A DNA stretch of 64,000 nucleotides from the NCBI GenBank assembly GCA_948560265.1, contig CAOXTD010000002.1, positions 93,580-157,579 on the forward strand, read 5' to 3'. The notes beneath the pieces are model-generated. The model searched no databases. It saw nothing but the letters and a program-made list of their open reading frames with translations, and had not been told where the DNA came from. Position numbers and translations under genes: made by a program. Source of the stretch: an uncultured Clostridia bacterium (GTDB lineage: Bacteria; Bacillota; Clostridia; TANB77; CAG-508). Position 1 is the stretch's first letter. Every line of letters starts with the position of its first letter. Shown piece by piece: positions 14,370 through 61,526 of the stretch.

Positions 14370-15617
<1,248 letters not shown>

Positions 15618-15627
15618 GGGGAAGAAA

Positions 15628-19109: not shown

Positions 19110-19244
19110 AAGAATCACCGCCTTTCTGGGATAAAATTTTTCCTCCTTTGATTTTCATTAGAAAACTGATAACAATAAAATAATAGCAAAGCCCAAATAA
19201 AAGTCAACATTTTTGAATAATGAAACGGGACTGTAAAGGTCCCG

Positions 19245-19768: not shown

Positions 19769-20806
19769 ATGAAAAAGAAAAATGTATTAAATTTAATTAA
19801 ATATTATTCAGAAAAAAATGATGAAGCATTCAGAAATGAAGCGTATGAGATAGCTAGAGAATTTGATGAAACTGGAGATTTTCAATTATCTGAATATATA
19901 ATGGCATTACTGTCTAATGTTAATACTTTTGTACCACAAGGTAAAAATTACGATTTATCCTTTTTTATAAAAGTAGAACCAAGTCAATCATCTTTACCAT
20001 TACCAGAAAAGATAAAAGAAGATATTATAGGTATTATAAATGCTGTAGGGCATAATGCTGGAGTAAATAAATTTTTATTTGAAGGGGCTCCAGGTACAGG
20101 TAAAACTGAAACTGTAAAACAATTGGCACGCATATTAGAAAGAGATTTGTTTTCAGTAGAATTTGATACTGTAATAGATAGCAAATTAGGACAGACATCT
20201 AAAAATATTTCAGAACTATTTAAAGAAATACAAAATTTATCACATCCAGAAAAAATAATTATTTTATTTGATGAAATAGATTCAATTGCATTAGATAGAA
20301 TTAATAAAAATGATCTTAGAGAAATGGGAAGAGCAACTTCTGCAATTTTGAAAGGATTAGATACACTAAATGAAAATATTGTTTTTATAGCCACAACAAA
20401 TTTATATGAATCATTTGATAAAGCATTAGTTAGAAGATTTGACTCTGTAATTAATTTTAATAGATATGAAAAAGAAGATTTAATAGAAATATCGGAATAT
20501 TTATTAAATGAAGCATTAGATAAATTTAAATTTGCAGGACGAAATGTTAAATTATTTAGAAAAATAATGAATATGATGGAAGACATACCTTATCCAGGAG
20601 AATTAAAGAATATTATAAGAAGCTCAATAGCATTTAGCAATCCTAATGATGAATATGATTATTTGAAGAGATTATTTACATTGGTGAATAAAAATAGTAA
20701 TGGTAATCTGAAAGAATTACAAGACATAGGATTAACTGTTAGAGAAATTGAAATATTAACAGGAATTTCTAAAAGTCAAGTTTCAAGGGAAATAAAGGGT
20801 GAGTAA
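19769..20806 (+). CDS. AAA+ ATPase (IetA-like partner of an S8 peptidase)
   Basis: Walker A GAPGTGKTE, Walker B ILFDEID, sensor FIATTN and arginine finger RRFD. Overlaps the downstream S8 gene by 8 nt. Confidence 0.75.
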   Translation: MKKKNVLNLIKYYSEKNDEAFRNEAYEIAREFDETGDFQLSEYIMALLSNVNTFVPQGKNYDLSFFIKVEPSQSSLPLPEKIKEDIIGIINAVGHNAGVNKFLFEGAPGTGKTETVKQLARILERDLFSVEFDTVIDSKLGQTSKNISELFKEIQNLSHPEKIIILFDEIDSIALDRINKNDLREMGRATSAILKGLDTLNENIVFIATTNLYESFDKALVRRFDSVINFNRYEKEDLIEISEYLLNEALDKFKFAGRNVKLFRKIMNMMEDIPYPGELKNIIRSSIAFSNPNDEYDYLKRLFTLVNKNSNGNLKELQDIGLTVREIEILTGISKSQVSREIKGE

Positions 20807-46617: not shown

Positions 46618-46657
46618 AAGACAAAACCAAGCCTAATGCACTAGGCTTGGTTTATTT
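46618..46657 (+). terminator. rho-independent terminator
   Basis: AACCAAGCCTA-atgca-CTAGGCTTGGTT followed by TATTTATT. Confidence 0.65.
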
Positions 46658-46877
46658 ATTAAATAGCGGTTAATTTTGAAATTTAGTGTCATCAAAAATC
46701 AAACAAAATCGAAAGAGAAAAAATACTGTCGAAAAAAATAAAAAAAAGAAGAAAAATGTCATACGAAAATCACTGAAAATACTACAAAATGAGTGAAAAC
46801 TAATTGACTAATATGTAAAAATATGGTATTTTAAATATATACTAAAGACGAAAAAACAAAAAAGAGGAGTGATTCAT

Positions 46878-47072
46878 ATGTTAAATGAAGAAATTTGTAA
46901 ATTAAGGGAAAAACTAAATGACAGCATACTAAATGAACCAGATTACAATATCACTTATCAAATCAGTGTGGAGCTAGATCAATTAATAGCACAATATTAT
47001 AGCTCACAAATGAAACTAGCAACACAAACAAATGGAAAACAAAGGGAAAAACAAATGGTAACAAAAAAGTAA
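46878..47072 (+). CDS. Spo0E-like sporulation regulatory protein (aspartyl-phosphate phosphatase family)
   Basis: MLNEEICKLREKLNDSIL...ISVELDQLIAQYY. GAGGAG RBS 8 nt before the ATG at 46878. Confidence 0.6.
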   Translation: MLNEEICKLREKLNDSILNEPDYNITYQISVELDQLIAQYYSSQMKLATQTNGKQREKQMVTKK

Positions 47073-47295
47073 ATGAATGATGCAGACATGCAGAATATAG
47101 AAAAAAGCAATTAGGATAAAATTTATCCTAGTTGCTTTTCTGCATAATAGAAAATTATTACAAAAACATGACGTTTTTATGACATTTATGTAACAATAGA
47201 GAAAAAACTAAAAAGATATGCTATGATAAAAGTACTTGAAAACAAATAAAAAGTAAGGTATAATAAGAAACAATGTCAAAAGAAAAGGAAGAAAA

Positions 47296-47670
47296 ATGAT
47301 TAAGAAAAAAAGCTTATTTATTATAGTTATCTTAATATTAGGTTTTATGATGTTTTTTCCAAGTACTATAACAGCAATTAGTGACCCAATTACAGATCCA
47401 AATGCATATAAACCAGGTAGCATTAATACAAGTGATGCAAATGTAGTGGCTCAAAAAGGAGGAATAATATTTAATATTATATCTACGCTTGGTATTATTG
47501 TTGCAGTAATTACGATTATTGTAATTGGAATTAAGTATATGGTTGGAAGTGTTCAGGAAAAAGCAGAATACAAAAAAACAATGATTCCATATTTGGTGGG
47601 AGTTGTTATGATAATAGGAGTTAGCGGAATTTTAAAACTAATAGCAAAATTAGCAACTAATATTGAATAA
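47296..47670 (+). CDS. pilin-like small membrane protein (VirB2/TrbC-like candidate), paralog 1
   Basis: Signal peptide plus two hydrophobic helices separated by KYMVGSVQEKAEYKKTMIPY. Confidence 0.5.
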   Translation: MIKKKSLFIIVILILGFMMFFPSTITAISDPITDPNAYKPGSINTSDANVVAQKGGIIFNIISTLGIIVAVITIIVIGIKYMVGSVQEKAEYKKTMIPYLVGVVMIIGVSGILKLIAKLATNIE

Positions 47671-47756
47671 AAAAACATAAAATATTGAAAAATAAACAAA
47701 TATATTGTATAATAATATACAAAAATAAAGAATTAAAAGAAAGGATAGTAATAAAA

Positions 47757-48149
47757 ATGAAAATTTGGAAATACTTTGCTGTAATTTTAATAGCCACATT
47801 TTTATTATTGTCATTTTCTATGAGTTATTCTCATACTAATGCAGCAGCACTTAGTAATATAGTATCAGGAGCAGACAGTTTCATACAAAATGGACAAGGT
47901 AATTCTAAGATTGATAATGAAGACATTCATAATTTATCAGACTCCATTTACAATATTTTATTAATAATTGGAACAATTGTAGCCATGATTGTAGGAGTAG
48001 TCTTAGGTATTCAATTTATTACAGGAAGTGTAGAAGCGAAAAGCAAGGTAAAAGAATCTTTAATACCATATGTAGCAGGCTGTGTTGTTATTTTTGGAGC
48101 ATTTGGTATTTGGAAATTAGTAATCACTATCTTACAGGGGCTTAATTAA
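47757..48149 (+). CDS. pilin-like small membrane protein, paralog 2
   Basis: Same architecture, with the conserved loop FITGSVEAKSKVKESLIPY. Confidence 0.5.
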   Translation: MKIWKYFAVILIATFLLLSFSMSYSHTNAAALSNIVSGADSFIQNGQGNSKIDNEDIHNLSDSIYNILLIIGTIVAMIVGVVLGIQFITGSVEAKSKVKESLIPYVAGCVVIFGAFGIWKLVITILQGLN

Positions 48150-48245
48150 TTTATAGTTAAACTAAAAAATAAAAAGATTTTAATATTATTCCAAAAATTA
48201 TTGGAATAAATCAAATAAATATAAAAATAAAGGGAGGAAAAAACT

Positions 48246-48608
48246 ATGCAAAAAACAATGAAACTAATTAGTATTTTATTAATGGTTGTAATGATTTGCT
48301 TTACATTAAGTACAGTTGCTAAAGCAGCTCCTAATGTTGATAGTATCGTAGGAATAATGGATAACCAAACTGCTAATGGTGCAGAAAATGTTGCATCAAT
48401 TGGTGGACAAATTGCTGATATTATTACAACAGTAGGAATCGTTGTAGCTGTTATTGTTATATTAATTTTAGGTATTAAATACATGATGGGAAGTGCATCA
48501 GAAAAAGCAGAATACAAGAAAACAATGATTCCATATGTAGTTGGAGCTATGCTAATTTTAGGTGGATCAGCTATTGTAAAAATTTTATTTTCAATTCAAA
48601 TTGTTTAA
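48246..48608 (+). CDS. pilin-like small membrane protein, paralog 3
   Basis: Same architecture, with the loop KYMMGSASEKAEYKKTMIPY. Confidence 0.5.
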   Translation: MQKTMKLISILLMVVMICFTLSTVAKAAPNVDSIVGIMDNQTANGAENVASIGGQIADIITTVGIVVAVIVILILGIKYMMGSASEKAEYKKTMIPYVVGAMLILGGSAIVKILFSIQIV

Positions 48609-48640
48609 TAATATTACAAAAACATTACGAATATATTACA

Positions 48641-48670
48641 AATATATTAAAAGTGCACAAAAAGTGCACT
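48641..48670 (+). terminator. rho-independent terminator after the pilin-like genes
   Basis: AAAGTGCAC-aaa-AAGTGCACTTT followed by T8. Confidence 0.65.
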
Positions 48671-48784
48671 TTTTTTTGCTTTTTAGTTACAATTTTCGTG
48701 TTTATTTGCTATAATATATGATAAGCATAAATAGAATTATGAAAAACAAAAGAGACTTGAGAAACAAAGGAGGACAAGCAGCTT

Positions 48785-49129
48785 ATGGGCACATATAATT
48801 TACCCAGAAATGTAAAAGGTGAAGGCAGAATTTTATTTATTTTTACCACTAAAAGTTTAATATATTCTGTAATAGCAGCAGCCATAGGTCTACCATTTTA
48901 TTTTATCTTCTCTAGCTTTGGAATGACAATGGTTGGAATTGCCTGCGTAGCTATTTTCGCAGTAATTGGGTTTACAATAGGAACTCTAAAAATGCCAGAG
49001 TTAGGAAAGTTTGAGTTTTCTAAAAAAACAGGTGGAGAAAATTTGGATGATATTATCAAAAGAGCAATTACTTTCAAAATGAAAGGAAAGAAAGTATATA
49101 TCTACAAGGAGGGTGAAAATAATGATTGA
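48785..49129 (+). CDS. VirB3/PrgI-like conjugal transfer membrane protein
   Basis: ~114 aa with 2 TM helices, immediately upstream of the T4SS ATPase region. Confidence 0.5.
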   Translation: MGTYNLPRNVKGEGRILFIFTTKSLIYSVIAAAIGLPFYFIFSSFGMTMVGIACVAIFAVIGFTIGTLKMPELGKFEFSKKTGGENLDDIIKRAITFKMKGKKVYIYKEGENND

Positions 49130-50357
49130 AATGATTACAATAATATTAGCAATTGTATTAATTGCCATGGTAATGCTACTTGCCGTCCTTTGCATGTTAT
49201 ACTTTAAATCGAAAAATAAACAACCAGAAACAGCTAAAAGTACTTCAACAATTTCAAATAAAAAAGAAATTAAAACCAGTAAAAACTATTCAGTAGAATC
49301 TGCTTTTGATTTTATGGAATTTGATACTGTAGAAGATAATATGATTTCTACAAAAAATGGTGGAAAATATGTCATGGTAGTAGAATGTCAAGGTATTAAC
49401 TATGACTTGATGTCAGAAGTAGAAAAAAATGCAGTAGAAGAAGGATTTATTCAATTTTTAAATACCCTAAGACATCCTATTCAAATTTACACACAAACGA
49501 GAACAATTAACCTAGAAAGCAGTATTCAAACATATCGTGATAAAGTAAAAGAAATAGAAGAAGAATTAGAAAAAGAAAAAAGAAAATATGAGCAAATGGT
49601 TAATTCAGGCAATTATACTAACGAACAACTAAATGCAGCATTTTATGATTTAACCAAAACTACTAATCTATATGAATATGGAAAAGATATTATCTATACC
49701 ACTGAAAAGATGAGCTTAAATAAGAATGTACTAAATCAAAAATATTACATCATCATTCCATATTACCCAGAAGAACTAGGAGAAAACAACTTTGATAAGC
49801 AAGAAATTAGAAATTTAGCTTTTTCAGAATTGTACACAAGAGCACAATCTATTGTTAGAACTTTATCCGTATGTGGTATTACAGGAAAAGTGCTAGACTC
49901 TAATGAATTAGTAGATTTACTATACATAGCATACAACAGAGATGATGCAGAAATCTATGGAATTGACAAAGCAATTGAAGCAGGATATAACGAACTATAT
50001 TCTACAGCACCAGATGTAGTAGATAAGAAAATGAAAGCACTAAATGAACAAATTGAAAAAGCAGCTTTTGAAAAAGCAAATCAAAAAGTAATAGAAGCAA
50101 AAACAGAAAAGCAAAAAGCTTTTGAACAAAAACAAGAGAATCAGGAGGATCTAATAGCACAATTAGCTTCCATCATTGTAGAGCAAAATAGAGGCGCTAT
50201 TGGAAATGATATTGCAGATAATGCTATTGAAAAAATTCAAGAAGAAAAACAAAAGAGAAGAGGAAGGCCTAAAAAACAAACTTCAGAAAGTACAGAAGAA
50301 GGAGGCGTAGGAGCAAATGAGAAAGAAGGAAGAGATAGAAGTACAAAAACAGCATAA
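49113..50357 (+). CDS. T4SS-associated membrane-anchored protein (N-terminal TM, coiled-coil), unknown role
   Basis: N-terminal TM helix. Position in the cluster between the VirB3-like and VirB4 genes. Confidence 0.45.
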   Translation: MKIMIEMITIILAIVLIAMVMLLAVLCMLYFKSKNKQPETAKSTSTISNKKEIKTSKNYSVESAFDFMEFDTVEDNMISTKNGGKYVMVVECQGINYDLMSEVEKNAVEEGFIQFLNTLRHPIQIYTQTRTINLESSIQTYRDKVKEIEEELEKEKRKYEQMVNSGNYTNEQLNAAFYDLTKTTNLYEYGKDIIYTTEKMSLNKNVLNQKYYIIIPYYPEELGENNFDKQEIRNLAFSELYTRAQSIVRTLSVCGITGKVLDSNELVDLLYIAYNRDDAEIYGIDKAIEAGYNELYSTAPDVVDKKMKALNEQIEKAAFEKANQKVIEAKTEKQKAFEQKQENQEDLIAQLASIIVEQNRGAIGNDIADNAIEKIQEEKQKRRGRPKKQTSESTEEGGVGANEKEGRDRSTKTA

Positions 50358-52287
50358 TGATTACACAAAACCAAATGAATATAAAATTTTGAAGAAAAAA
50401 ACGATTAAAGAATTAATCTCACCAGCAGGAATAGACACAAGTAATATTGACCATTTAGAAATTATTTCTAATGTCACAAGGTATGCAAGAAGCTTCTTTG
50501 TATCAGCACTTCCTAGAATGTGTACCTTCCCTGAATTATTTAGAGATATGTATTTATTCGGAGATATTAATACCTCTATTTATATTAATCCAATTCAAGA
50601 ATCTAGATCACAAAACGAATTAAATAGAGTTATCAACGAATTGGAAACAGAAAGAATTGTAGCAGCAGACAAAGGAAATATTAATAGAGAAAGTACATTG
50701 GGTCAAAAAAGATTAGAAGCAGAACAATTGAGAGATGAAATTGCAGCAGGATTTAACAAACTGTATGAAGCATCCATTGTTGCAACTTTATTTGCCTATA
50801 GCTTAGAAGACCTAGATAAATACACAAAATTATTAGCAACCGAAATGTCAAAATCATTAGTAAATATTAAAACTGCATGGGGAATGCAAGAAGAAGCATT
50901 TAAGTCCAATTTACCTTTAATGGAAGATAAAATTAAAAAGACACATACTTTTGATAGACGTTCTATGGGAACAGTTTTCCCATTCACAACATCAGAAGTA
51001 GGACATCCAACTGGAATTCCTCTAGGAATCAATAAACAAACAGGAGTGCCAATTCTTTTTGATAACTTCCATAACTCACTTACTAACTACAATATGGTTA
51101 TTTTCGCTAAATCTGGTGCTGGTAAATCAGTAACTATGAAAACTTTAATTTCTCGCAGCGCAGTGTTAATGGGAATTCAAAGTTTAGCACTAGACGCTGA
51201 AGGTGAGTATAGTATTGTAGCAGAGAGTCTAGGAGGTATTAACGTTGTTTTATCACCTACTTCAAAAACAATTATCAATATATTTGATATTGAAACAGAG
51301 GTAGTAAAAGATGAAATTACAGGAAAAGAAAGACTAGTATTAAATGTAGAAAATAAGGTGGAAGACGTAACACAAGCATTGCTTACTATGGCAAGAGGAA
51401 GTACTAGAAGTCAAGAAGTAAACGAACTTACGAAACAAATCATAGCCGAATCAGTAGCAGAAGAATATATAGCACATGGAATTAACAGTGATCCTAACAG
51501 CTTATACGATGCAACCTCTGGTTTAGCAAATGGAAATATGCTAGGAAGAGAAAGAAAACAAATGCCCACCATTGGTTCTTGGTACAAAAGAATTCAAGCA
51601 AAAGCAGCAGCAAATACAAATCAAGATTATAGCTTCCATTATAGTTATTTACTAAAGGTTATGAAACAATATATCAGAGAGTATGATGGACAAATGGCAT
51701 ACTTTGATGGACAATCTACCTTTGATTTATTAGATGGAACACTATTTATTAACTTAGATATTTCGCAACTAGAAGAAAGATTTGCAAGACCTTTAGCACA
51801 ACAAATTCTACTTGCTTGGATTTGGGAAAAGTATGTTAAGAAAAATAGTGAAGATAGATCAAAAGCTTCTAAGAAAAGAGTTTTAGTAGATGAAGCATGG
51901 ATGTTATTACCATATCCAGAGGCAGTAGATTTCCTAAACACCATGGCAAGACGTGCCAGAAAAAGAAATGTATCTTTAGCTATTATTTCTCAAAGATTTC
52001 AAGACTTTTATGAGAAACCAGAAGCGCAAGCGGTACTAACTTCTTCAGACACAAAGTTATTCTTAGCACAAGATAAATCAGAAATTCAATACTTAAAAGA
52101 GGTATTCAAATTAAGTGAAGGGGAATCAAGCTTTTTAATTACTTGTTTCAAAGGAGAAGGACTATTAAAAGTAGGAGCAGATAGCGCTATTATTCAAATA
52201 CAGCCAACTGCAAAAGAATTCGAATTCGTAGAAACAAACTTAAATAAATTAGCACAGAAGAAAAATAAACAAGCAATAAATTATTAG
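50317..52287 (+). CDS. VirB4/TraE/PrgJ-family T4SS ATPase
   Basis: Walker A FAKSGAGKS and Walker B VLVDEAWML. Confidence 0.8.
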   Translation: MRKKEEIEVQKQHNDYTKPNEYKILKKKTIKELISPAGIDTSNIDHLEIISNVTRYARSFFVSALPRMCTFPELFRDMYLFGDINTSIYINPIQESRSQNELNRVINELETERIVAADKGNINRESTLGQKRLEAEQLRDEIAAGFNKLYEASIVATLFAYSLEDLDKYTKLLATEMSKSLVNIKTAWGMQEEAFKSNLPLMEDKIKKTHTFDRRSMGTVFPFTTSEVGHPTGIPLGINKQTGVPILFDNFHNSLTNYNMVIFAKSGAGKSVTMKTLISRSAVLMGIQSLALDAEGEYSIVAESLGGINVVLSPTSKTIINIFDIETEVVKDEITGKERLVLNVENKVEDVTQALLTMARGSTRSQEVNELTKQIIAESVAEEYIAHGINSDPNSLYDATSGLANGNMLGRERKQMPTIGSWYKRIQAKAAANTNQDYSFHYSYLLKVMKQYIREYDGQMAYFDGQSTFDLLDGTLFINLDISQLEERFARPLAQQILLAWIWEKYVKKNSEDRSKASKKRVLVDEAWMLLPYPEAVDFLNTMARRARKRNVSLAIISQRFQDFYEKPEAQAVLTSSDTKLFLAQDKSEIQYLKEVFKLSEGESSFLITCFKGEGLLKVGADSAIIQIQPTAKEFEFVETNLNKLAQKKNKQAINY

Positions 52288-52295
52288 GGGGAATT

Positions 52296-52667
52296 ATGGA
52301 GAAATTAATGGCAAACCATAAGTTAACACAAAAGATATTTCTATCAATAATCGTAGTGTTATTGCTTAGTTTTGCTGTGCCCGTAAGATCACAAGCAGGA
52401 ATAGGAGGAATCTTACTAGATCCGCTCTTTGACTTGGTAGGAACTATATTAGATGTTTTCGTAGGAGCACTGCAAGCATTCTTAGTAGATGGAGAATTCA
52501 ATAATAGTGAAGATTCAAGTGGATTGAACTTTTACTTAGCAGACAAAGATGATTTTATGTCGAAGATAGATGATGAATATAAAGAATTTAAATATTCTAC
52601 TGGAAACGGAGAGGCACAAATTACAATCAATGCCGATGAGTTAGATAAAAGTATTTGGCGGAAATAG
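52296..52667 (+). CDS. small secreted/membrane protein of the T4SS cluster
   Basis: N-terminal signal/TM IFLSIIVVLLLSFAVPV. Confidence 0.4.
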   Translation: MEKLMANHKLTQKIFLSIIVVLLLSFAVPVRSQAGIGGILLDPLFDLVGTILDVFVGALQAFLVDGEFNNSEDSSGLNFYLADKDDFMSKIDDEYKEFKYSTGNGEAQITINADELDKSIWRK

Positions 52668-52686
52668 TACATATGCAATTCCAGTT

Positions 52687-54984
52687 ATGAGATATTCACC
52701 AGAAAAGATTTTCTCAGGGAAAATTCCAGCTCTAGATATTAACTTTGTTGATCCAGTTGACTGGGAAGATGATGACATGAATGAACGTTCTATTACACAA
52801 GCACTACATAGTACCATTGCTTCTTGGTACGTATCATTAAGAAATTTAGCAGTAGTAGCATTAATGCTAGTATTAGTATATGTAGGTATTAGAATTGTTA
52901 TTAGTAGTACAGCATCAGACAAAGCAAAATATAAGCAAATGTTAATAGATTGGCTTATTGCTCTATGTATTCTATTTTGTTTACATTATATCATGACATT
53001 TACAACAACGATTGTAAATGAAATTACAGGAGCAATCACAGGAGCCCAAGATAGCAATGGAAATAATGTAGCAGTTAAAGTAGAAGGAGATTCAGATGGG
53101 ACAGTAGAATTTAATACAGATTTGATGGGATTGATTCGTTTCAAAATGCAAGCACCAAATGTATCAGGCAAGATTTTGTATTTGATTTTATACTTAGCAA
53201 TGGTAATTTACACATTCATGTTTACTTTTTACTATTTAAAAAGGGTACTTACAATTGCATTTTTAACACTAATTTCTCCATTAGTAGCAATGACGTATCC
53301 AATAGACAAAATAAGAGATGGAAAAGCGCAAGCTTTTGATATGTGGTTAAAAGAATATGTATTTAATGCATTGTTGCAACCATTTCATTTAATTATTTAT
53401 AGTATTTTTGTAGGCTCTGCAATTGATTTGGCAGCTAAAAATCCATTATTTGCAATTGTTGCGCTAGCCTTTATCACACCAGCTGAAAAGATACTACGTA
53501 AATTCTTCGGATTTGAAAAGGCAAGCACAGCGGGAGCATTAGGAGCTGTTGCCAGCGCAGCAGGTGGAGCTGCTGTTATGAATCATATGAGAAATCTTAT
53601 GGCACCTAAAAAAGGTGGTGGCGGTGGTAGCGGAAATAAAGGTATCAAAACTAAAAATAAACCAGAAGGTGCTGCACCATCTTTAGAAGAAGCATTTGGT
53701 AATGGAAGTAGTGGAGATAGCTCAAATACGTCAAGCGATACACAATCTCCAAGGGAAGCTAATCAACCAACATTAGGAGGAGGACAAGACTGGGACCAAA
53801 ATGGAGGTGGCGGAGGAGAAAGTTCAAATACACATGAACCGACACAAACACCTTCAGGAGGAGAAAATGGAGGACAAGGAGGAAATCCTCCACCAGAACC
53901 AACGCCTCCACCAGAACCACCAGATTCAGGTTCGGGTTCAGATGGCATCCATTTAAAAGATACTGCTTTTGAATGGTCTGATAATGATACAAGAGGAGCA
54001 GGAGCATATCTAGGAGGAATTGCAAGATCAGGTGCTTCGTGGGCAGGTAACAAAATTGCCAATTCAGCTGCGGGACAAGGAGCCATAAGATTTGGTAGAA
54101 GTGTCGCGGGTAGTGCAAGAAGCGTAAGAGATATGGCTGCTGCAAGAGCACGTCAAGTAGGTGCATTAGCATCAGCAGGAGCTCATAAGGTAGGAGATTT
54201 CGGAAGAACTTATATACCAAAGCCTATTAGAAATTCAGCAGGTACTTTAGCAAGAGCAACAGGACATGCAGCAGTAGGCGCAGCAAAAGCAGCAGGACAT
54301 GCAGCTTTAGGTGCAGGAAATGTAGCGTTACAAACAGGCGTGACAGCAGGAAAGGCAGCACTAAAAGCAGCACCTGGAGCAATACTAGGTATGGCAGCAG
54401 GTATTGCAAGTGATGACTTAAGCGACATTGGAAAATACACATTAGCAGGAGCAGCATTAAGTAGTACAATAGGATCAAGTGCAGTAGCACAAGCAGGTTC
54501 TTTTGTAGCAGACAGTTATAGACAAGGCTCTGGAAGAGCTTATGAAGCAGCACTAAAACAAAGAAAAGAAAGCTACGTACAAGATAATGAAGAATTGTAT
54601 AAGCAGAAATATCCAGATGCTTCTAAGAAAGAATTAAAAGCGAAGTTGGAACAAGGAGCATACTATGACAGTATTGGAATTGAAGGAAAAGACACTTTAA
54701 AAGCTGTAAAATTAGAAGATAAAATAAAGAAAGAAATGGCTCAAGCAGGAGTAGCCGAAGAGGAGGCAAACAGAAGAGCACAAGCGCAAACAGCAGCGAT
54801 TATGAAAGAAGTAAAAGATTATAGTGCAAAAGACTTAAGAGAAGAAAGTACGGTAAGAGATTTAAGAACAGACCTATCAAAACGATTAGAAAGTCAAGGA
54901 TTAACAGGAAATGAAAAAATGAAAACAGTTGATATGATTGTAAGAGAAATGAAATCTGTTCGAGGAGTTAAAAACGATTTTTAA
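52687..54984 (+). CDS. VirB6/TrbL/TcpH-like polytopic membrane protein with G/S/P/A-rich low-complexity region and coiled-coil C-terminus
   Basis: Multiple TM helices in the N-terminal half, then a low-complexity region (GGGGGSGNKG...PPPEPTPPPEPP). Confidence 0.6.
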   Translation: MRYSPEKIFSGKIPALDINFVDPVDWEDDDMNERSITQALHSTIASWYVSLRNLAVVALMLVLVYVGIRIVISSTASDKAKYKQMLIDWLIALCILFCLHYIMTFTTTIVNEITGAITGAQDSNGNNVAVKVEGDSDGTVEFNTDLMGLIRFKMQAPNVSGKILYLILYLAMVIYTFMFTFYYLKRVLTIAFLTLISPLVAMTYPIDKIRDGKAQAFDMWLKEYVFNALLQPFHLIIYSIFVGSAIDLAAKNPLFAIVALAFITPAEKILRKFFGFEKASTAGALGAVASAAGGAAVMNHMRNLMAPKKGGGGGSGNKGIKTKNKPEGAAPSLEEAFGNGSSGDSSNTSSDTQSPREANQPTLGGGQDWDQNGGGGGESSNTHEPTQTPSGGENGGQGGNPPPEPTPPPEPPDSGSGSDGIHLKDTAFEWSDNDTRGAGAYLGGIARSGASWAGNKIANSAAGQGAIRFGRSVAGSARSVRDMAAARARQVGALASAGAHKVGDFGRTYIPKPIRNSAGTLARATGHAAVGAAKAAGHAALGAGNVALQTGVTAGKAALKAAPGAILGMAAGIASDDLSDIGKYTLAGAALSSTIGSSAVAQAGSFVADSYRQGSGRAYEAALKQRKESYVQDNEELYKQKYPDASKKELKAKLEQGAYYDSIGIEGKDTLKAVKLEDKIKKEMAQAGVAEEEANRRAQAQTAAIMKEVKDYSAKDLREESTVRDLRTDLSKRLESQGLTGNEKMKTVDMIVREMKSVRGVKNDF

Positions 54985-55007: not shown

Positions 55008-55958
55008 ATGATTAAGTTATTAAGATACTGGAACCAAAACAAAAGAAAGACATTAATAACGATTGCAGTTATAGCTCTCATTATTATTGTCATACAAATA
55101 GCAAATAGTGTAATAAAAAGGCGAAATGAAAGAGATAAGAATGAAATAAAACAAAGTACAGTAGCAAATGATATTACAAAACCAAATGAATCTATTATAT
55201 CGCAAGATAAATTAACAGAAAAAGAAACAAAAGAAAACTCAGATTTTATAGAACAGTTTGTCAGCTTTTGCAATCAAAAAAAAGCGGATGATGCTTATAG
55301 TTTATTATCAGATGATTGTAAAAATGAATTATATCCAACAAAAGAATTATTTGTTAATAATTATATGAATCAAATTTTTGAAGAAACAGTCAACTATGAA
55401 TTACAATTATGGTATACAGTCTCCAACTGTTATACATACCGCATTACATATAATAAAGGAAATTTATTGCAAACAGGTGGACAAGGTAATAGTAGCAACT
55501 TTTTAGATTATATTACTTTGCTAAAACAAAATGGAGAATATAAATTAAACATTAATAAATTTATTCGTAGGCAAACATTAAGTAAGCAAGGTGGCAGTAA
55601 TGGAATCAATATTACTATTAATAGTAAATGTATTTATGTAGATTATGAAATTTATAACATGACTGTACAAAACAATACACAAAATACCATTTTATTAAAT
55701 GATGGAACAAATGCCAATAATTTTAGCTTAATAGGCAGAAATAATAGTACTTTCTCTTCTGTTATTTCTGAATTACCAATGAGTAGTTTAACACTAGATT
55801 CACAATATAGAAAAACAATAAATATAAAATTCAATAAAATCTATATGACACGAAGTGAACTAGATGCTATGCAAATGGCCAATATCTATTTAAATAAACA
55901 ACAATATGATATAAAACAAGAAAATGCAGAAAAAATCACAATAAAAATAAATCTATAA
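55008..55958 (+). CDS. membrane-anchored T4SS component (VirB8/TcpC-like candidate)
   Basis: N-terminal TM helix plus a ~280-aa extracytoplasmic domain. Size and position fit VirB8-like proteins. Confidence 0.4.
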   Translation: MIKLLRYWNQNKRKTLITIAVIALIIIVIQIANSVIKRRNERDKNEIKQSTVANDITKPNESIISQDKLTEKETKENSDFIEQFVSFCNQKKADDAYSLLSDDCKNELYPTKELFVNNYMNQIFEETVNYELQLWYTVSNCYTYRITYNKGNLLQTGGQGNSSNFLDYITLLKQNGEYKLNINKFIRRQTLSKQGGSNGINITINSKCIYVDYEIYNMTVQNNTQNTILLNDGTNANNFSLIGRNNSTFSSVISELPMSSLTLDSQYRKTINIKFNKIYMTRSELDAMQMANIYLNKQQYDIKQENAEKITIKINL

Positions 55959-55990: not shown

Positions 55991-56308
55991 ATGACGAAGT
56001 TAGGAGATAAACTAAAACAAGCAGGAAAAGAAGAGATAAAGAATAAAACAAAATCCACAATCAAAAAACTTTTAATCAAAGCGATACCATTTATTGCCAT
56101 AATTTTAGTAGGGCTTATGGTAGCATCTTGCCTTATTGCTTTAGTAAATATTATCAAAGAAACAGCACAAGGGATTATTAATGCCATTGTAGACTTTTTT
56201 AAAGGACCTCAAACTGTAATCGAAATTAGTGATGAACAATTAGACCAACTCATAGCCGTCATAGAGGCTACGGGAATAGATTTAGAAGATCTGGAATTAC
56301 TGCGGTGA
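55991..56308 (+). CDS. small membrane protein of the T4SS cluster
   Basis: One TM helix, LIKAIPFIAIILVGLMVASCLIALV. Confidence 0.4.
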   Translation: MTKLGDKLKQAGKEEIKNKTKSTIKKLLIKAIPFIAIILVGLMVASCLIALVNIIKETAQGIINAIVDFFKGPQTVIEISDEQLDQLIAVIEATGIDLEDLELLR

Positions 56309-56372: not shown

Positions 56373-58778
56373 ATGTTTTTCGAAGCACAAATTATGACAC
56401 AAGAATTAAAAAGAGGAAATGACAATCTAGATAAACAAGGACGTGTATTCTTGTATCCAGAATCAACATTAGGACAAGATAATCTTACTCCTTATCAAAC
56501 GCTAACTTATATTAAGTACCAATCAGATGATGCAAGTGAAAATACATTCAAAAAGAAATTAGAAGCAAACGCAAAGGATATACAAAATTATTTCTCTGTC
56601 AATGATAATGGAGAATTAGTTTTAGCGACTTTACAAACAACAGTAGTCAAAACAGAAAGTAAAACAGATGGAGACTGGTTTGCTGATAAAGATACTACTA
56701 CAACATATTTTGCAACAGAAGTAACCGTAGATTACAAAAGCATGATTTCACAATATGCAACACCAATGAACTTCTTTTTAGAATTAGGAATGGTAGTAAG
56801 AAATCCAGAGTTTTTAGCAGCAGTAGTAGATTTGGTAAAAAGCAAAACAAATATACAACTAACAGTTTTAAATACAACATCTGTAGATGTTACTACACAA
56901 GTAGACAAAACAACCACTCATGTGCGTACAAGAACAATTGTTACAGATCCAACAGGTCAAGCACCAGATACACCAGTGGAAACTAGTTCAGATAAAACAA
57001 CGACAACAACTACTACTACAACAGTAACAACCGTTTCGCCAGTAGTTAGAGTAACTTCTGTAGATACATGGCTATGCAGCCAAAAAATTACATATAGTAA
57101 AATTCCAGGAACAGCAATAGAAGACGACTATCTCATTCCGCAAGAAAGCGAAGATGCAAAATCATTAGGTGATGACGAAACAGTGGAAGAATCAGTTTCT
57201 TGGATAACAAGAGAAGATTCTACGGTACATACATCCATTACTAGAGATACATATGATTCTGGTATTGCATCAGACTATACAGACAATACAGACGAATTCA
57301 TTAAACTATTAGATATTAAATATAGAATTCCAAATTCAAAAGAGAAAAGAACAGCAGGTGAATACTTAAAAACAGATGCAGAACTATTTTTCCAATTACT
57401 AAGCCAAAATCCAGAGACACAAGGCATGGAATTAGTCATGAGATATATCATGCAAAAATATACTGGTAAAGACTATGGTGCAGGAGACTTTAATTTTGGT
57501 ATATTTGATGTAGTTTATCCAATGGGAGGAGGCGGAGTATCTCCTTTTGGATCAACTTTAGAAAGAGAAGAATTTATTCGACTAGCACAAGCATATAGTA
57601 ATGATAGTGACTATGTGAAATACATGGCAAAATATGCAGGAGATTTCTATGATATTTGTACCAAATACAATATTAACCCTGCTTTGGCTTATGCACACGC
57701 CTGTCTAGAAACTGGAAATGGAAGCAGTAGTGGATGCAAAAACAATAAAAACTATTTTGGGTATGCTCATTATAATAACTCAAGCAGTGGAAAAGGCTAC
57801 AGTAGTGTAAAAGAATCTATAGAAGATTATTGTAGATGGATTATCAGTAACTCTACGCCAGGAAATAGCGCTTATGCAGAAAATGTAAAAAGAGCGGCAG
57901 AATATGCTACTGGCAATGCAAAATTAAAAGGAACACCAGATAAAAATATTTATGTATTATACTGTAGATATGCTTATTTAGGTGATACACATATTGCAAA
58001 TGAGCCAAGCTTTGCGAGTCCAGCAGGTATAGACTATTATATATCACATGGAAGCAACTGGGGAACTGGTGGTCGTATTTACACTTACTACATGTATGAA
58101 AAAGGTGGATTATATACAGGAGAATATAGTACAAGATGTGGACATCCCAATGGTTCAGACCCAACTACTATTGCAGAAAGAGCAGATTATGCAGTATATT
58201 CATGTAATCAAAGAATTAATATTGCAAAAGCTATCTTTGGTGACAACTGTTTTGTAGGAAGTGGAGGAACTTTAGTAGAAGCAGCTTATGAAGTTGCAGA
58301 CCATTTCTTGAATTCAGGTGTAACAGTACATTATGCAGGAAGCAGTGTACTAGAGGCTACTAACAATGGAAGATATTGCATATTTAATGACATACAAGGT
58401 GCATGGGATAAGCCAATTCAAGATCCAAGCCGATATGGTGTTGTTTGTGCAACTTATGTAAGCTTAGCAATATGGAAAGCAGGATTAATAGATGAAGCAA
58501 CAATTAACCAATATGCATATAATGGTTGTTCAGGAGTAAAAAGCATGCTAGAAAACAGTTCTTATGCAAGCCAATGGCAAAGAATAACAAATACAGGGGA
58601 CTTGCAAGAAGGAGATATTGTTTTCATTGATGGCCATGTATATATCTATATGGAAGGCGGAAAATGTTTAGACCAAAATTACTGTGTAGTAAGTAGTAGC
58701 GGAAGTGACAATAGAGGCACATTATTAAATGCAAGTTTAGGAAGCTTCCAAGTAGCATTTAGATATACAGGGGGCTAA
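56373..58778 (+). CDS. VirB1-like bifunctional peptidoglycan hydrolase (GH73-type glucosaminidase plus C-terminal CHAP/NlpC-P60-like domain), PrgK/TcpG/Orf14-like
   Basis: Central YAHACLETGNGSS resembles a GH73 domain. The C-terminus has Cys...His (CATYVSLAIW...DGHVYIY). Thr-rich linker TTTTTTTTVTTV. Confidence 0.65.
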   Translation: MFFEAQIMTQELKRGNDNLDKQGRVFLYPESTLGQDNLTPYQTLTYIKYQSDDASENTFKKKLEANAKDIQNYFSVNDNGELVLATLQTTVVKTESKTDGDWFADKDTTTTYFATEVTVDYKSMISQYATPMNFFLELGMVVRNPEFLAAVVDLVKSKTNIQLTVLNTTSVDVTTQVDKTTTHVRTRTIVTDPTGQAPDTPVETSSDKTTTTTTTTTVTTVSPVVRVTSVDTWLCSQKITYSKIPGTAIEDDYLIPQESEDAKSLGDDETVEESVSWITREDSTVHTSITRDTYDSGIASDYTDNTDEFIKLLDIKYRIPNSKEKRTAGEYLKTDAELFFQLLSQNPETQGMELVMRYIMQKYTGKDYGAGDFNFGIFDVVYPMGGGGVSPFGSTLEREEFIRLAQAYSNDSDYVKYMAKYAGDFYDICTKYNINPALAYAHACLETGNGSSSGCKNNKNYFGYAHYNNSSSGKGYSSVKESIEDYCRWIISNSTPGNSAYAENVKRAAEYATGNAKLKGTPDKNIYVLYCRYAYLGDTHIANEPSFASPAGIDYYISHGSNWGTGGRIYTYYMYEKGGLYTGEYSTRCGHPNGSDPTTIAERADYAVYSCNQRINIAKAIFGDNCFVGSGGTLVEAAYEVADHFLNSGVTVHYAGSSVLEATNNGRYCIFNDIQGAWDKPIQDPSRYGVVCATYVSLAIWKAGLIDEATINQYAYNGCSGVKSMLENSSYASQWQRITNTGDLQEGDIVFIDGHVYIYMEGGKCLDQNYCVVSSSGSDNRGTLLNASLGSFQVAFRYTGG

Positions 58779-58796
58779 AAAATAAGGAGGGATTAG

Positions 58797-60176
58797 ATGA
58801 AAAAAGGAATTATCATATTAACAGTCTTATCTATTATAGTAGCAATCGTTTTAATAGTCCTTTTTGTTCAAAAGGGTAATATAGAAAATAAACTTCAACA
58901 GAATACTACTGTAAGCGAAATAGAGAATCCCTCCGAAAAAGAGGAAATCAATCAATTAGAAGTTGTTTCAGTAAGAAGTGAATTTTTATTAGTAGAAAAT
59001 TGCATCAAAACTTTTTATCAAAATTATGCAGCTATTAATAGTTCAGGAGAACAACTTGAGAGAGTATACAATTTACTAGATAACGATTATATACAAGAAT
59101 TTAATATCACAAAAGAAAACTTAATTGGTAAATACGGAAATAGTAAAACAATAGAAGTAGATGTTACAAAAATATATGGTATGGCTTTAGAAAGTAATCA
59201 ACATATTTATTTTGCATATGGATACTTAAGAGATACCAGTTCATCTCAAATAGCAGACTTAGCAATTGCCATTAGAATAGACAATAGTAATCAAACATTT
59301 TCAGTATTACCATATGAATATTTACAAAAGAACAACTATCTAAATGTAACAGAACAAAGCAAAATAGAGATAAACAAAACAGAAAAAATTGAAAATAAAA
59401 CATATAATGTATATGAAAATAAGTATCAAAGTGAAGAAGACTATGTAACAAAACTATTTGAAAATTATATGAATAGAGCTTTGTATCATACAGAACTTGC
59501 TTATCAGTCCTTAAATACACAATATAGTCAAAAAAGGTTTGGAAATTTACAAAATTACAAAAACTTTGTAGAAAAAAATAGAGAATTATACTTATCTTAT
59601 AGTATGACAAATGCGAAAAAGCCAGAAGAATTTAGCAATATGCAAGAATACTTAATGTATTTAGATACTTATCAAACTGTTAAATTAAAATCTTACCAAG
59701 TAAGTAGACAAAATAATATTACACAATATGTATGTATTGATAACCAAGACAACTATTATATTTTTCAAGAAACAGCACCAATGCAATACAATGTTATCTT
59801 AGATACTTATACTATTGACCTACCAGAATTCATAGAAAAATATAATAATATGACAGAAGAGCAAAAGGTATTATTTAATATTCAAAAGTTCTTTGAAGCA
59901 ATTAATGGGCAAGACTACCAATATGCATACAACAAACTAGATGTAACTTTTAGAAATAATAATTTCGGAAGCCTAGCAGAATTTGAAGCATATGCCAAAA
60001 AGAATTTCTTTAGCGAGAATGCATTAGCAGCAGGAAAGGCAGAAAAGCAAGGAAACCTTTATTTATATGATATTACGATTAGTGATGCTAGTAAGAAAGA
60101 TACCAGTACAAAGAAAAAGAATTTTGTTATGCAATTAAAAGAGGGAACAGACTTTATAATGTCCTTTGGAATTTAA
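58797..60176 (+). CDS. membrane-anchored protein of the T4SS cluster, unknown function
   Basis: N-terminal TM helix GIIILTVLSIIVAIVLIVLFV. Confidence 0.4.
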   Translation: MKKGIIILTVLSIIVAIVLIVLFVQKGNIENKLQQNTTVSEIENPSEKEEINQLEVVSVRSEFLLVENCIKTFYQNYAAINSSGEQLERVYNLLDNDYIQEFNITKENLIGKYGNSKTIEVDVTKIYGMALESNQHIYFAYGYLRDTSSSQIADLAIAIRIDNSNQTFSVLPYEYLQKNNYLNVTEQSKIEINKTEKIENKTYNVYENKYQSEEDYVTKLFENYMNRALYHTELAYQSLNTQYSQKRFGNLQNYKNFVEKNRELYLSYSMTNAKKPEEFSNMQEYLMYLDTYQTVKLKSYQVSRQNNITQYVCIDNQDNYYIFQETAPMQYNVILDTYTIDLPEFIEKYNNMTEEQKVLFNIQKFFEAINGQDYQYAYNKLDVTFRNNNFGSLAEFEAYAKKNFFSENALAAGKAEKQGNLYLYDITISDASKKDTSTKKKNFVMQLKEGTDFIMSFGI

Positions 60177-60188: not shown

Positions 60189-61526
60189 ATGCCAGAAAAT
60201 AAACAACAAGATACATTAAAAAAAATGTTAGAAATAGGAGATCTAATTGAACAAGGAAGAGAGAATGAGGACACACAAGTAGGAACTATCAATTATTATA
60301 AAGATTTTATTTTTCAAGGGAGCAATTTAGCTGAAACAGATATCTTTGTAGCCAAAATAGAAAATATAAAAGAAAATACAAATACATATGAGCTATATTC
60401 TGGTAAAACAAATACTTTAATTGCGACTGTAGATGAACAAGGAAAATTACATTTCATGCCAGAATATATAGAAAGTTTAAAACAGATTGATGAAGGACTT
60501 ACACAAATGCTTCATTTAGAAGACCTAGATTTTCAGCTTCCAGAGGAACTAGAAAAAGAAGATAAGGTATTAACGAGAGAAGAAAGAATACATCTTTCTT
60601 CTCAAAAAATGAAAACAACAAAAGAAGGAAAGACAAAAGGAGAAAACGGTACAAAAGAATTAGAAAAAGAAGAACAAGGAAAATCTCCAGAAGAAGAACA
60701 AAAACAGCGAATAGCAAAAGCAAAAAAAGTCCCAAGTCATAACATATTAATGATAAGAGAAAATAGCAATTTTTATAAAGATCACCCAAATCTAGAACCA
60801 AACCTATACTTCTATCGTGATACACAAGGTGTAGTAAAAGCTGAATACATTGACGGTAATGGACAACCTCAGCCTTCCAAATATTTTGAAGTTTCTACTA
60901 CTTCACTAAGACAAGAAACCGTTAGTATTGGAAATGACGGAAACCCTGTTACTAAAGAAGTACCTCATCAAGTCATGAAAACAAAAGGACTTAATAATGT
61001 AGACAAAGACATTAGAGATATTAGAATTAATATTAAAATTGATAGTTATGGTTATTTAGATATTGAAGAAGCAAGACAAGGGCAAAACGGAGATTGGTTA
61101 TCACATGATATAGAAACAAAAGGAAGAAACTATAATTCACATGCAGTCAATCAAACCACTTCTATTCGTACAAGAGCAGCTGACCCAGATAGACAAACCG
61201 AAGCCTATGAAAAAGCAGCCAATACAGGACTAAAAGAAGACGGAATAGAATATAGCGAAATGTATTTAATTCAGCATCCAAATGAATTTATCGAAAGTTT
61301 AATACAAGAAGGATATCAGAAACCAGAAGCAGTACAGATTTTAAATTATATGGTAGGACAAGAAGGCTTAAACTTAGACCAGGCAAAACAAAGAGTAAAT
61401 GAAGAAATTGAACAAGGAAAATTTGAAAAGGAAGAGCAAAAGGAGAAAGAGCCAATAGAGCAAGGAGATGAAGAAGAAGGAAGAACACCATGGGGAGATG
61501 CAGAAGACAGAAGAAGTAGAAGATAA
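60189..61526 (+). CDS. hypothetical E/K-rich soluble protein
   Basis: 445 aa with charged low-complexity stretches. Confidence 0.4.
   Translation: MPENKQQDTLKKMLEIGDLIEQGRENEDTQVGTINYYKDFIFQGSNLAETDIFVAKIENIKENTNTYELYSGKTNTLIATVDEQGKLHFMPEYIESLKQIDEGLTQMLHLEDLDFQLPEELEKEDKVLTREERIHLSSQKMKTTKEGKTKGENGTKELEKEEQGKSPEEEQKQRIAKAKKVPSHNILMIRENSNFYKDHPNLEPNLYFYRDTQGVVKAEYIDGNGQPQPSKYFEVSTTSLRQETVSIGNDGNPVTKEVPHQVMKTKGLNNVDKDIRDIRINIKIDSYGYLDIEEARQGQNGDWLSHDIETKGRNYNSHAVNQTTSIRTRAADPDRQTEAYEKAANTGLKEDGIEYSEMYLIQHPNEFIESLIQEGYQKPEAVQILNYMVGQEGLNLDQAKQRVNEEIEQGKFEKEEQKEKEPIEQGDEEEGRTPWGDAEDRRSRR

Follow-up and report, generated by a model that had tools for sequence, protein, structure and literature searches.

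At the head of a type IV secretion system (T4SS) gene cluster, three small genes stand one behind the other in the stretch of DNA analysed here, a window of 64,000 nucleotides from the genome of an uncultured Clostridia bacterium (contig CAOXTD010000002.1 of assembly GCA_948560265.1). The host belongs to a lineage of uncultured, low-GC gut Clostridia in which two related closed chromosomes, both metagenome-assembled genomes (MAGs), measure 1.6-1.7 Mb. The three products, P1, P2 and P3 (Table 1), are paralogs: P1 and P3 are 45% identical (BLASTP E 4e-23), P1 and P2 34% (E 4e-18), and P2 and P3 29% (E 5e-13). A first-pass annotation of the sequence had described them as three consecutive paralogs of about 120 residues, each with a signal peptide and two hydrophobic helices, and this description holds. 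In the alignment and in AlphaFold2 (AF2) models, all three begin with a hydrophobic leader that has an AxA-like site and continue with a hydrophilic segment and two long hydrophobic helices; a charged loop is also shared. The leaders are of the ordinary Sec type, with candidate cleavage sites by heuristic prediction at ITA-IS, TNA-AA or AAA-LS, and AKA-AP, and each protein is predicted to combine a cleavable leader with a two-helix hairpin and a short polar loop. The loop motif quoted by the same annotation, GIKYM(V/M)GS..EKAEYKKTMIPY, is found in P1 and P3 as stated, whereas P2 has a diverged form of it, GIQFITGSVEAKSKVKESLIPY; for the p2 class the loop reads GSVEAKSKVKESLIPY. We take the start of P2 to be the ATG preceded by the ribosome-binding site AAAGGA, a longer TTG start at 47685 being mechanically possible; the strongest ribosome-binding site of the three, GGGAGG, precedes P3.

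Profile searches against pilin models, proposed as the check on the first-pass reading of these proteins as VirB2-type pilins, bear that reading out. All three proteins reach the Pfam gathering threshold (GA) of PF18895 T4SS_pilin (26.6 bits), P3 barely, and P3 also passes that of PF04956 TrbC/VirB2 (27.9 bits). The best NCBIfam match of each is a Mycoplasma "pilin-like conjugal transfer protein" model from an integrative and conjugative element (ICE), under its cut-off, and P3 also touches the VirB2 model PRK13857. When a profile of 55 family members was compared with all PDB sequences, three of the seven matches were T4SS pilins aligned in register, all of them weak (TrwL, E 0.26; VirB2, E 4.4 and 4.8), and the top match was a designed coiled-coil protein. 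The AF2 models (predicted local distance difference test, pLDDT, 78-79) consist of a leader helix, a short helix and a long helix-loop-helix hairpin, whose helices span residues 46-81 and 84-116 in full-length P3; mature P3 is modelled with helices at 4-13, 17-54 and 57-91 (pLDDT 79). The family is large, with at least 3,337 matching proteins in a public collection, and each of the 120 family proteins listed carries a precomputed PF04956 match, most of them a PF18895 match as well. In one public source the exact P3 sequence already bears the name "type IV secretory pathway VirB2 component (pilin)", and an ortholog 91% identical to P3 is a hypothetical protein in NCBI. Taken together, these sequence comparisons support membership of the three proteins in a known family, the VirB2/TrbC-type T4SS pilins.

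The pilin genes adjoin analogues of virB3 and virB4, with genes for PrgI, a TrsD-like protein and VirB4 directly downstream, an order that is kept in related loci. Between the two groups lies the strong terminator noted in the first-pass annotation, a hairpin with a 10-bp stem (48649-48673) followed by a T-run. Four terminator-like sites occur in the region versus 0.6 expected in shuffles, and 64 of 73 related loci have a hairpin and T-run 3' of their last pilin gene, often with the same GTGCA(C/T) stem, in variants altered on both arms, and sometimes as an unrelated hairpin. Promoter-like sites precede pilins 1 and 2; such sites are not enriched in the region (24 found, 18.9 expected), and the two are consensus matches only. 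The best explanation is that the pilin genes form their own transcription unit or units, ended by a conserved terminator.

Pilin classes and inheritance across species

In a scan of one genome per species, 454 genomes encode a relative of the window VirB4, and for the best 80 by VirB4 similarity (82-100% identical) we inspected 10 kb either side of that gene. These 80 come from the guts of mice, humans, rabbits and ruminants; all are MAGs of uncultured Clostridia or "Clostridium sp. CAG" genomes, and closed chromosomes of 1.57 and 1.70 Mb are among them. Exactly three tandem pilin open reading frames (ORFs) occur in 53 of the 80 loci and four to six in several, most of the others being cut by contig ends. 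Best matches between species mostly respect position in the array: p2 proteins match p2 in 92% of comparisons, p3 match p3 in 90% and p1 match p1 in 64%, with another 30% of the p1 best matches going to p3, the closest paralog of p1. The signature [DN]Pxx[YWF]x[PG] is present in 30 of 53 p1 proteins and G[AG][DE]xF[ILVM] in 30 of 53 p2 proteins, each being found in 0-1 of 53 in the other classes. The p1 class evolves fastest and has a DPxxNPxxYxP-type motif in its mature N-terminus, the p2 class is the most divergent and has a SGADxFIxxG motif there, and the p3 class is the best conserved of the three. Column conservation reaches 0.88-0.91 in the loop (p3) and 0.26-0.39 in the mature N-terminal segment, which together with the C-terminal tail is the least conserved part. 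A sister lineage, with VirB4 64-66% identical, likewise has three TrbC-positive pilins; those of its locus L093 pass the TrbC/VirB2 model with 32.4, 29.1 and 41.1 bits. The triplication is ancient and stable rather than a recent amplification, and comprises three orthologous classes with N-terminal signatures of their own. The first-pass annotation had seen in it a sign of diversification, which fails in so far as recent amplification was meant, the three classes being old and stable, and stands in so far as the mature N-terminal segment is the variable part.

Several departures from the common layout were seen. Some p1- and p2-class pilins carry insertions of 130-220 aa between signal peptide and hairpin, with Ser/Gly/Asn-rich linkers and coiled-coil-like segments (Table 1); in L012 and L082 the extension is C-terminal instead, and in L085 a single ORF holds two fused pilin hairpins and a C-terminal CxxC...CxxC motif. 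In the sister-lineage locus L093 (GCA_037193465.1; GC content 27.7%), a TraX-family gene and a gene for a single-stranded DNA-binding protein lie just 5' of the three-pilin array (3571-4389 and 5968-7674). The TraX protein, of the F-pilin acetylase family, scores 89.6 bits in Pfam, and the third array gene encodes a double hairpin of 236 aa. No TraX homologue was found in the window.

The cluster is set among conserved housekeeping genes, in an order kept in distant species. Upstream lie genes for a GH25-LysM protein, an ABC transporter, NrdD, phosphoribosyl pyrophosphate (PRPP) synthase, rpsU, YqeY, two M16 peptidases and a Spo0E-like protein, and the same flanks (NrdD, rpsU, the two M16 peptidases and the Spo0E-like protein) accompany the cluster in a human-gut species whose pilins are 50-56% identical to those of the window. 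One of the M16 peptidase genes, M16b, is upstream in 46 of the 55 loci with enough flank. Across the 80 loci, which were chosen by VirB4 similarity, the median amino-acid identity to the window proteins is 86.5% for VirB4, 85% for PRPP synthase, 71% for M16b, 61% for M16a, 63% for PrgI, 60% for the TrsD-like protein, 43-50% for the pilins, 46% for the VirB6-like protein and 33% for a 316-aa protein of the cluster. In 44 species the identity of VirB4 tracks that of neighbouring M16b (Spearman 0.86; Mantel r 0.87, with 0 of 999 permutations as high), mean pairwise identities being 0.87 for VirB4, 0.69 for M16b and 0.50 for P3. Since the VirB4 and M16b identities correlate, the locus has co-diverged with its host, with strong purifying selection on the ATPase, and this is the opposite of the pattern of a mobile element. 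We also considered whether recent horizontal sweeps had produced the high VirB4 identity, and rejected this: other genes of the cluster, those for the pilins and VirB6 included, have diverged far more, and the VirB4 distances follow those of a housekeeping gene.

Other features of the neighbourhood may be recorded here. The window shares about 96% nucleotide identity with MGBC166183. A bidirectional terminator hairpin follows the second M16 peptidase gene (46624-46653), and the gene immediately 5' of the pilin array (46869-47072) encodes the Spo0E-like phosphatase, of 67 aa, whose position is kept in 49 related loci. The 8 kb beyond the cluster hold genes for a small amidase, a 2,699-aa GH94 protein and a response regulator. 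The GH94 protein, of glycoamylase type and like cyclic beta-1,2-glucan synthase, is encoded about 1.5 kb past the T4SS cluster, beyond the end of the window (in L088 it lies at 11110-19209), and has a size that is unusual in a genome of about 1.6 Mb.

Downstream genes and the upstream island

The genes that follow the pilins encode the remaining parts of the machine (Table 1). The TrsD/TraC-like protein matches NCBIfam TrsD (E 3e-5) and the N-terminal part of VirB4_plasma (E 6e-6), both far under cut-off, and its orthologs carry a precomputed match to PF26593, TraC-like. VirB4, the sole P-loop ATPase of the cluster, scores 200 bits against the NCBIfam CD1110-type VirB4 model, under the cut-off of 325 bits. 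The large VirB6/TrbL-like protein has five transmembrane-like segments, a Gly/Ser/Pro/Ala-rich C-terminal half of low complexity, and an N-terminus that resembles a pilin hairpin (T4SS_pilin 24.8 bits at residues 39-102; TrbL_4 19.8 bits; both below GA); it also matches the NCBIfam families Mbov_0396 and pLS20_p028 under cut-off. In the window, the 123-aa ORF and the VirB6-like ORF (52296-54984) are in different frames, and in the human-gut relative L005 a single ORF of 909 aa occupies the position (12030-14759). The 316-aa bitopic protein, conserved in 70 of the 80 loci at about 33% identity, matches nothing in Pfam or PHROGs; from its position and topology we would guess at a VirB8-like role. 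The cell-wall hydrolase matches Pfam Glucosaminidase with 53.2 bits and NlpC/P60 with 19.8 bits, the latter below GA.

One gene towards the end of the cluster is hypervariable between strains. The 459-aa bitopic protein is at the same position in 62 of the 66 loci with sufficient downstream sequence, and is at most 44% identical to any ortholog, including that of L079, a relative of 96% average nucleotide identity. The stretch 57512-59785, comprising the C-terminal part of the hydrolase and the 459-aa ORF, has no nucleotide alignment with L079, which is otherwise about 96% identical. This suggests strain-level cassette replacement or diversifying selection on a component that is probably surface-exposed. 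PHROGs scans of the cluster proteins lacking a family gave no useful match, and the large ORFs downstream of VirB4, in the window and in eight related loci, have no credible Walker A motif, the sole match, in the ORF at the hydrolase position, looking like chance.

Well upstream, at 1900-30320, the window contains an island of 25-27% GC that looks like an integrative mobilizable element (IME) and has no VirB4 or type IV coupling protein (T4CP) of its own. It holds the only relaxase in the window, two tyrosine integrases and a cargo that includes defence genes (Table 1). For the window protein at 14370-15617, an exact look-up found no record.

Table 1. Positions of the pilin genes, their signals, the T4SS cluster and the upstream island in the window, followed by extended or atypical pilins of related loci
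Feature	Position	Strand	Description
Promoter-like site before pilin 1	47236..47264	+	TTGAAA-17-TATAAT; consensus match, 11/12
Pilin paralog P1, p1 class	47296..47670	+	124 aa; T4SS_pilin 32.8 bits, TrbC 25.0 bits
Promoter-like site before pilin 2	47685..47713	+	TTGAAA-17-TATAAT; consensus match, 11/12
Pilin paralog P2, p2 class	47757..48149	+	130 aa; T4SS_pilin 31.4 bits, TrbC 27.2 bits
Pilin paralog P3, p3 class	48246..48608	+	120 aa; TrbC/VirB2 40.1 bits, T4SS_pilin 26.7 bits
Intrinsic terminator or attenuator, end of pilin unit	48649..48681	+	AAAAGTGCAC-AAAAA-GTGCACTTTT and T-run; hairpin search
PrgI-family protein (VirB3 analogue)	48785..49129	+	114 aa, two transmembrane segments; Pfam PrgI 36.1 bits (GA 27)
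TrsD/TraC-like protein	49113..50357	+	414 aa, N-terminal transmembrane segment and VirB4-N-like domain; sub-cut-off profile matches
VirB4 ATPase	50317..52287	+	656 aa; Pfam P-loop_TraG, AAA_10, DUF87
Membrane protein	52296..52667	+	123 aa; fused to next gene in other species
Extended VirB6/TrbL-like polytopic protein	52687..54984	+	765 aa; sub-GA Pfam TrbL_4, T4SS_pilin
Bitopic protein, no family	55008..55958	+	316 aa; one N-terminal transmembrane segment
Membrane protein, no family assigned	55991..56308	+	105 aa
Cell-wall hydrolase (VirB1/TrsG/PrgK analogue)	56373..58778	+	801 aa; glucosaminidase and NlpC/P60 (Pfam)
Bitopic protein, hypervariable between strains	58797..60176	+	459 aa; no family match
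Acidic soluble protein, last conserved cluster gene	60189..61526	+	445 aa; no family, no Walker A motif
Island tyrosine integrase	4908-6425	+	Island also holds DUF6076
Island tyrosine integrase	6809-8011	-	
Island phage replisome organiser	9642-10998		With DnaC/IstB-like loader
Island MobA/VirD2 relaxase	11269-12651		
Island cargo, type I restriction-modification	12815-18759		hsdMSR
Island cargo, AAA ATPase with subtilase	19769-23027		
Island cargo, TIR/SEFIR protein	25053-26477		Also Fic-HTH (helix-turn-helix), TnpV
Island cargo, SF1 (superfamily 1) helicase-DUF2726 protein	27617-30316		
Extended or atypical pilin, L071	6220-7245		
Extended or atypical pilin, L058	6335-7351		
Extended or atypical pilin, L066	6592-7584		
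Extended or atypical pilin, L052	6878-7819		
Extended or atypical pilin, L054	5962-6942		
Extended or atypical pilin, L012	7026-7838		
Extended or atypical pilin, L082	759-1427		
Extended or atypical pilin, L085	426-1154		

Rival readings and known systems

Overall, we think it probable that three anciently diverged VirB2/TrbC classes head a fixed, vertically inherited, chromosomal T4SS-derived machine that is not part of an ICE and likely serves contact-dependent interaction or uptake. The alternatives call in question either the identity of the proteins or the immobility of the locus. P1-P3 might be unrelated small membrane proteins (holins, bacteriocin immunity proteins or generic proteins with two transmembrane segments) that resemble pilins through hydrophobic composition only, and it is true that their scores against pilin models are modest (25-40 bits), that hydrophobic hairpins draw spurious matches, as the designed protein at the top of the PDB search illustrates, and that Foldseek is uninformative. 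Yet curated thresholds are reached in two independent pilin models, the "pilin-like conjugal transfer protein" model is the best NCBIfam match of all three, though below cut-off, and the place just upstream of the VirB3 and VirB4 analogues is kept in the outgroups and in every species locus with sufficient upstream sequence. Assignment to such a family was what the first-pass annotation had named as fatal to its reading; Pfam and PHROGs scans found no holin or immunity family for P1-P3, and we regard this alternative as highly improbable.

The other two rivals accept the pilins and let the machine move DNA. The first-pass annotation had placed the genes in a conjugative element, and in that case the pilins would belong to the mating-pair-formation (MPF) module of an ICE (MPF_FATA/FA type) that serves its own transfer. 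The components are indeed typical of monoderm conjugation (PrgI, TrsD-like, VirB4, VirB6-like, hydrolase), the nearest plasmid VirB4s, 41% identical and from Clostridium botulinum and C. beijerinckii, share the gene order after a single pilin-like gene, and the window also has one relaxase and two integrases, at 4.9-12.7 kb. The relaxase, however, belongs to the island (about 1.9-30.3 kb); conserved housekeeping genes, syntenic with the T4SS elsewhere, fill the roughly 17 kb between it and the pilins. We looked for a T4CP and a relaxase in the 64-kb window, in about 8 kb beyond it, and in the inspected flanks of VirB4 in the related loci: the cluster and the 8 kb downstream contain no T4CP, relaxase or integrase, and no T4CP was found anywhere in the window or the 8 kb beyond. 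The T4SS has no integrase or other recombination gene next to it (no search was made for direct repeats at its borders), the same flanks recur across species, and VirB4 both co-diverges with the neighbouring housekeeping gene and exceeds its conservation. The pilins, moreover, have diverged much further than VirB4, and this speaks against a recent horizontal spread. The ICE reading is thus largely refuted, and we consider it very unlikely. A single ICE reaching from 2 to 62 kb was also considered, and is ruled out by the intervening housekeeping genes, the difference in GC content and the synteny in other species. Rather less improbable, if still unlikely, is a resident helper T4SS that builds a mating pilus and continues to move DNA, either mobilizing IMEs such as the relaxase island 17 kb upstream or exporting or importing chromosomal DNA. 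The island, with its relaxase, replication organiser and loader, integrases and defence cargo and without VirB4 or T4CP, would fit such a partnership, and chromosomal T4SS-derived DNA importers without a relaxase are known in Ced and ComB (PMC9905601, PMC12857230); that the island is a client of the resident T4SS is speculative. Against it, the search yielded no T4CP that could couple a relaxosome to the channel, the island lies outside the conserved neighbourhood seen in L005, and strong purifying selection on VirB4 over many species suggests benefit to the host, not service to parasitic elements.

At the same time, several points weigh against a vertically inherited machine with VirB2-type pilins. 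P2 and P1 fall narrowly under the TrbC/VirB2 threshold, and Foldseek comparison of the full-length and mature P3 models with the PDB returned no VirB2 structure and nothing under E 2, a null result that is uninformative for a helical hairpin rather than evidence against pilins. A MobA/VirD2-type relaxase does lie 36 kb upstream, in the separate island, and parts of the genome outside the inspected stretches could hold a T4CP or relaxase. The choice of the 80 loci by VirB4 similarity may somewhat inflate the apparent conservation of VirB4. The nearest named relatives of VirB4 are Firmicutes (33-41%), kinship with the clade of Patescibacteria being unsupported so far. Lastly, the pilus itself is a prediction from the genes.

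With respect to its relatives, VirB4 forms an isolated clade among 1.84 billion representative proteins, with one sister at 66% and then a gap to about 41% or less; the named relatives are in Clostridium botulinum and C. beijerinckii plasmids (41%), Heliorestis (37%) and a Peptostreptococcaceae MAG (33%). These identities suggest a separate branch of MPF_FATA. Megablast with the cluster and tblastn with P3 found nothing among the plasmids of PLSDB, although the low-complexity filter may hide weak matches, and the P1-P3 subfamily is therefore not on known plasmids (PLSDB). Like the window, MPF_FATA systems (pGO1 Trs, pCF10 Prg, CTn2, and the Mycoplasma ICE with Mbov_0395-0397) have homologous PrgI, TrsD, VirB4, VirB6-like and large hydrolase components, and the pilins match the Mycoplasma model Mbov_0395, the VirB6-like protein Mbov_0396 (a transmembrane protein) and VirB4 Mbov_0397 (VirB4), all below cut-off. 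Those systems, however, are mobile, have a T4CP and a relaxase, and are described as lacking VirB2 homologues (PMC4027160), whereas the locus here is immobile, part of the core genome, and has three clear VirB2-type genes. Both the related Clostridial plasmid systems and the chromosomal outgroups (Heliorestis, L095) have, in this order, genes for a small membrane protein, PrgI, TrsD-like, VirB4, VirB6-like and hydrolase, the single small pilin-like gene standing at the head of each cluster. These single head genes match below threshold (T4SS_pilin 18.2 and 25.5 bits; hhalign E 1e-4 to 2e-4 against the family profile), which is probably why surveys report no VirB2 homologue in MPF_FATA (PMC4027160). 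In Heliorestis acidaminivorans (L094, 16454-21727) and in L095 (18897-22019), the single-pilin T4SS cluster is followed directly by Tad-like genes with T2SSE and T2SSF, so that T4SS and Tad modules are physically linked in both, and L094 also has an A24 prepilin peptidase.

The classical pilins of PF04956, Agrobacterium VirB2, RP4 TrbC and R388 TrwL, are likewise prepilins of about 120 aa with a long signal peptide, a two-helix hydrophobic hairpin and a short charged loop, encoded directly upstream of virB3 and virB4 analogues. The differences lie in the monoderm host, which has no outer-membrane core of VirB7, VirB9 and VirB10, no VirB5 and no VirB11; in the presence of three paralogs versus one; and in a longer mature protein with a variable N-terminal segment of about 25-35 aa. 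There is, too, no cyclase (TraF) in the cluster, and a TraX acetylase homologue adjoins the array only in the sister locus L093. The Bartonella Trw system resembles the window in being a T4SS without a T4CP that has tandem pilin paralogs, several in number, and is believed to work chiefly by way of its surface filament (PMC12857230); it is, however, diderm and derived from R388, and its recent, lineage-specific copies are read as antigenic or host-range variation, in contrast to the ancient positional orthologs here. A published "conserved pilin" cluster of TANB77 (Kim et al. 2024, PMC11680825), an order to which the present host may belong, is likewise a pilus-type cluster of uncultured, small-genome, low-GC gut Clostridia, but it is an unrelated Tad/Flp machine of TadZ/CpaE, CpaF, TadB/C and type IV (Flp/TadE-like) pilins, and the paper does not mention T4SS or VirB2; identity with the P1-P3 locus is ruled out. 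A type IV (Tad/Flp or Com) identity of the pilins themselves is likewise not supported: P1-P3 match none of the Flp and type IV pilin families of Pfam, the cluster genes include no T2SSE or T2SSF, and the leaders are of the Sec type.

The closest published analogue is the chromosomal T4SS of Patescibacteria, which lacks a relaxase and has TrsD, PrgI, VirB4, VirB6 and arrays of 2-11 VirB2 genes (PMC12102498). In these systems (Ca. Southlakia epibionticum; surveyed by Quinonero-Coronel et al. 2025, PMC12102498), as in the window, a monoderm host with a small genome carries a chromosomal, mostly vertically inherited system with TrsD, PrgI/VirB3, VirB4, VirB6 and peptidoglycan hydrolases, no relaxase in the cluster, and VirB2-like pilins of divergent sequence, encoded in tandem arrays and matching PF18895 and PF04956. 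There are also differences: the window comes from a true Firmicute (class Clostridia), its VirB4 has its nearest named relatives among Firmicutes (Heliorestis, Clostridium plasmids), and its three orthologous pilin classes make up a stable array, in place of 2-11 copies of high variability.

A possible pilus in gut Clostridia

Solved F and T pili provide, by analogy, the basis for orienting the pilins, with the loop toward the lumen and the variable termini toward the exterior. For processing, polymerisation, subunit roles and substrate we propose the following. The prepilins would be inserted through Sec and cut by signal peptidase I to give mature membrane hairpins of about 93-100 aa. VirB4, with PrgI and the TrsD-like protein, would then dislocate the pilins from the membrane, an activity of VirB4 established in Agrobacterium (Kerr and Christie 2010, reference 23 of PMC4027160), and the pilins would polymerise on the VirB6-like platform, itself with a pilin-hairpin-like N-terminus. 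The hydrolase would open a gap in the cell wall for the filament or conduit. In the assembled structure, the nearly invariant charged loop may line the lumen and the variable, class-specific N-terminal segment may decorate the outside, an arrangement that agrees with the conservation profile and with the species in which p1- and p2-class pilins carry insertions of 130-220 aa. P3 is the candidate major subunit, because it is the best conserved and has the strongest ribosome-binding site, with P1 and P2 as putative specialised minor subunits. The terminator may keep pilin transcripts in excess over those of the machinery.

Regardless of the details of assembly, the cluster contains neither T4CP nor relaxase, and its function is therefore probably not self-transfer. 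By analogy with Helicobacter ComB, archaeal Ced and the relaxase-less T4SS of Patescibacteria, the role we favour as most likely is that of a domesticated pilus or conduit for contact-dependent interaction with, or uptake of DNA or other macromolecules from, other cells; such a role has been proposed for the Patescibacteria T4SS (PMC12102498, PMC12857230), with Ced as an analogue (PMC9905601). A bolder version, possible but distinctly tentative, holds that throughout a lineage of small-genome gut Clostridia the cluster encodes a core and perhaps indispensable organelle, a true VirB2-type pilus built from three specialised pilins, in a dependent or contact lifestyle parallel to that of Patescibacteria.

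According to reviews, Gram-positive T4SSs lack VirB2 pilins and the Patescibacteria T4SS is unique among monoderms in its potential for a conjugative-type pilus (PMC4027160, PMC12857230), in agreement with the remark in the first-pass annotation that VirB2-type pilins are uncommon in Firmicute systems; we found no paper on a T4SS locus with three pilin classes in gut Clostridia. The present locus is a second, phylogenetically separate monoderm case of a vertically inherited T4SS with no relaxase or T4CP in its cluster, here with three stable pilin classes. At least 80 species of uncultured Clostridia in the guts of mice, humans, rabbits and ruminants carry it, with a VirB4 conserved on a par with PRPP synthase. 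With this locus one can ask concretely whether T4SS pili are made in Gram-positive bacteria, and of what use a domesticated T4SS is to gut commensals with reduced genomes; it also bears on the origin of the Patescibacterial pilin arrays. The single, sub-threshold pilin-like genes in Clostridial T4SS clusters suggest that VirB2 homologues in MPF_FATA have been overlooked rather than being absent. If the lineage is TANB77, abundant pilin surface proteins would also be candidates for recognition by the host immune system. And if a core pilus of three specialised pilins is indeed made, it would be the first conjugative-type pilus in a Gram-positive bacterium outside the candidate phyla radiation (CPR); Firmicute MPF_FATA systems would then carry VirB2 homologues and could be the source of the CPR pilin arrays, and these commensals would have a means of uptake from, or interaction with, neighbouring bacteria or host cells.

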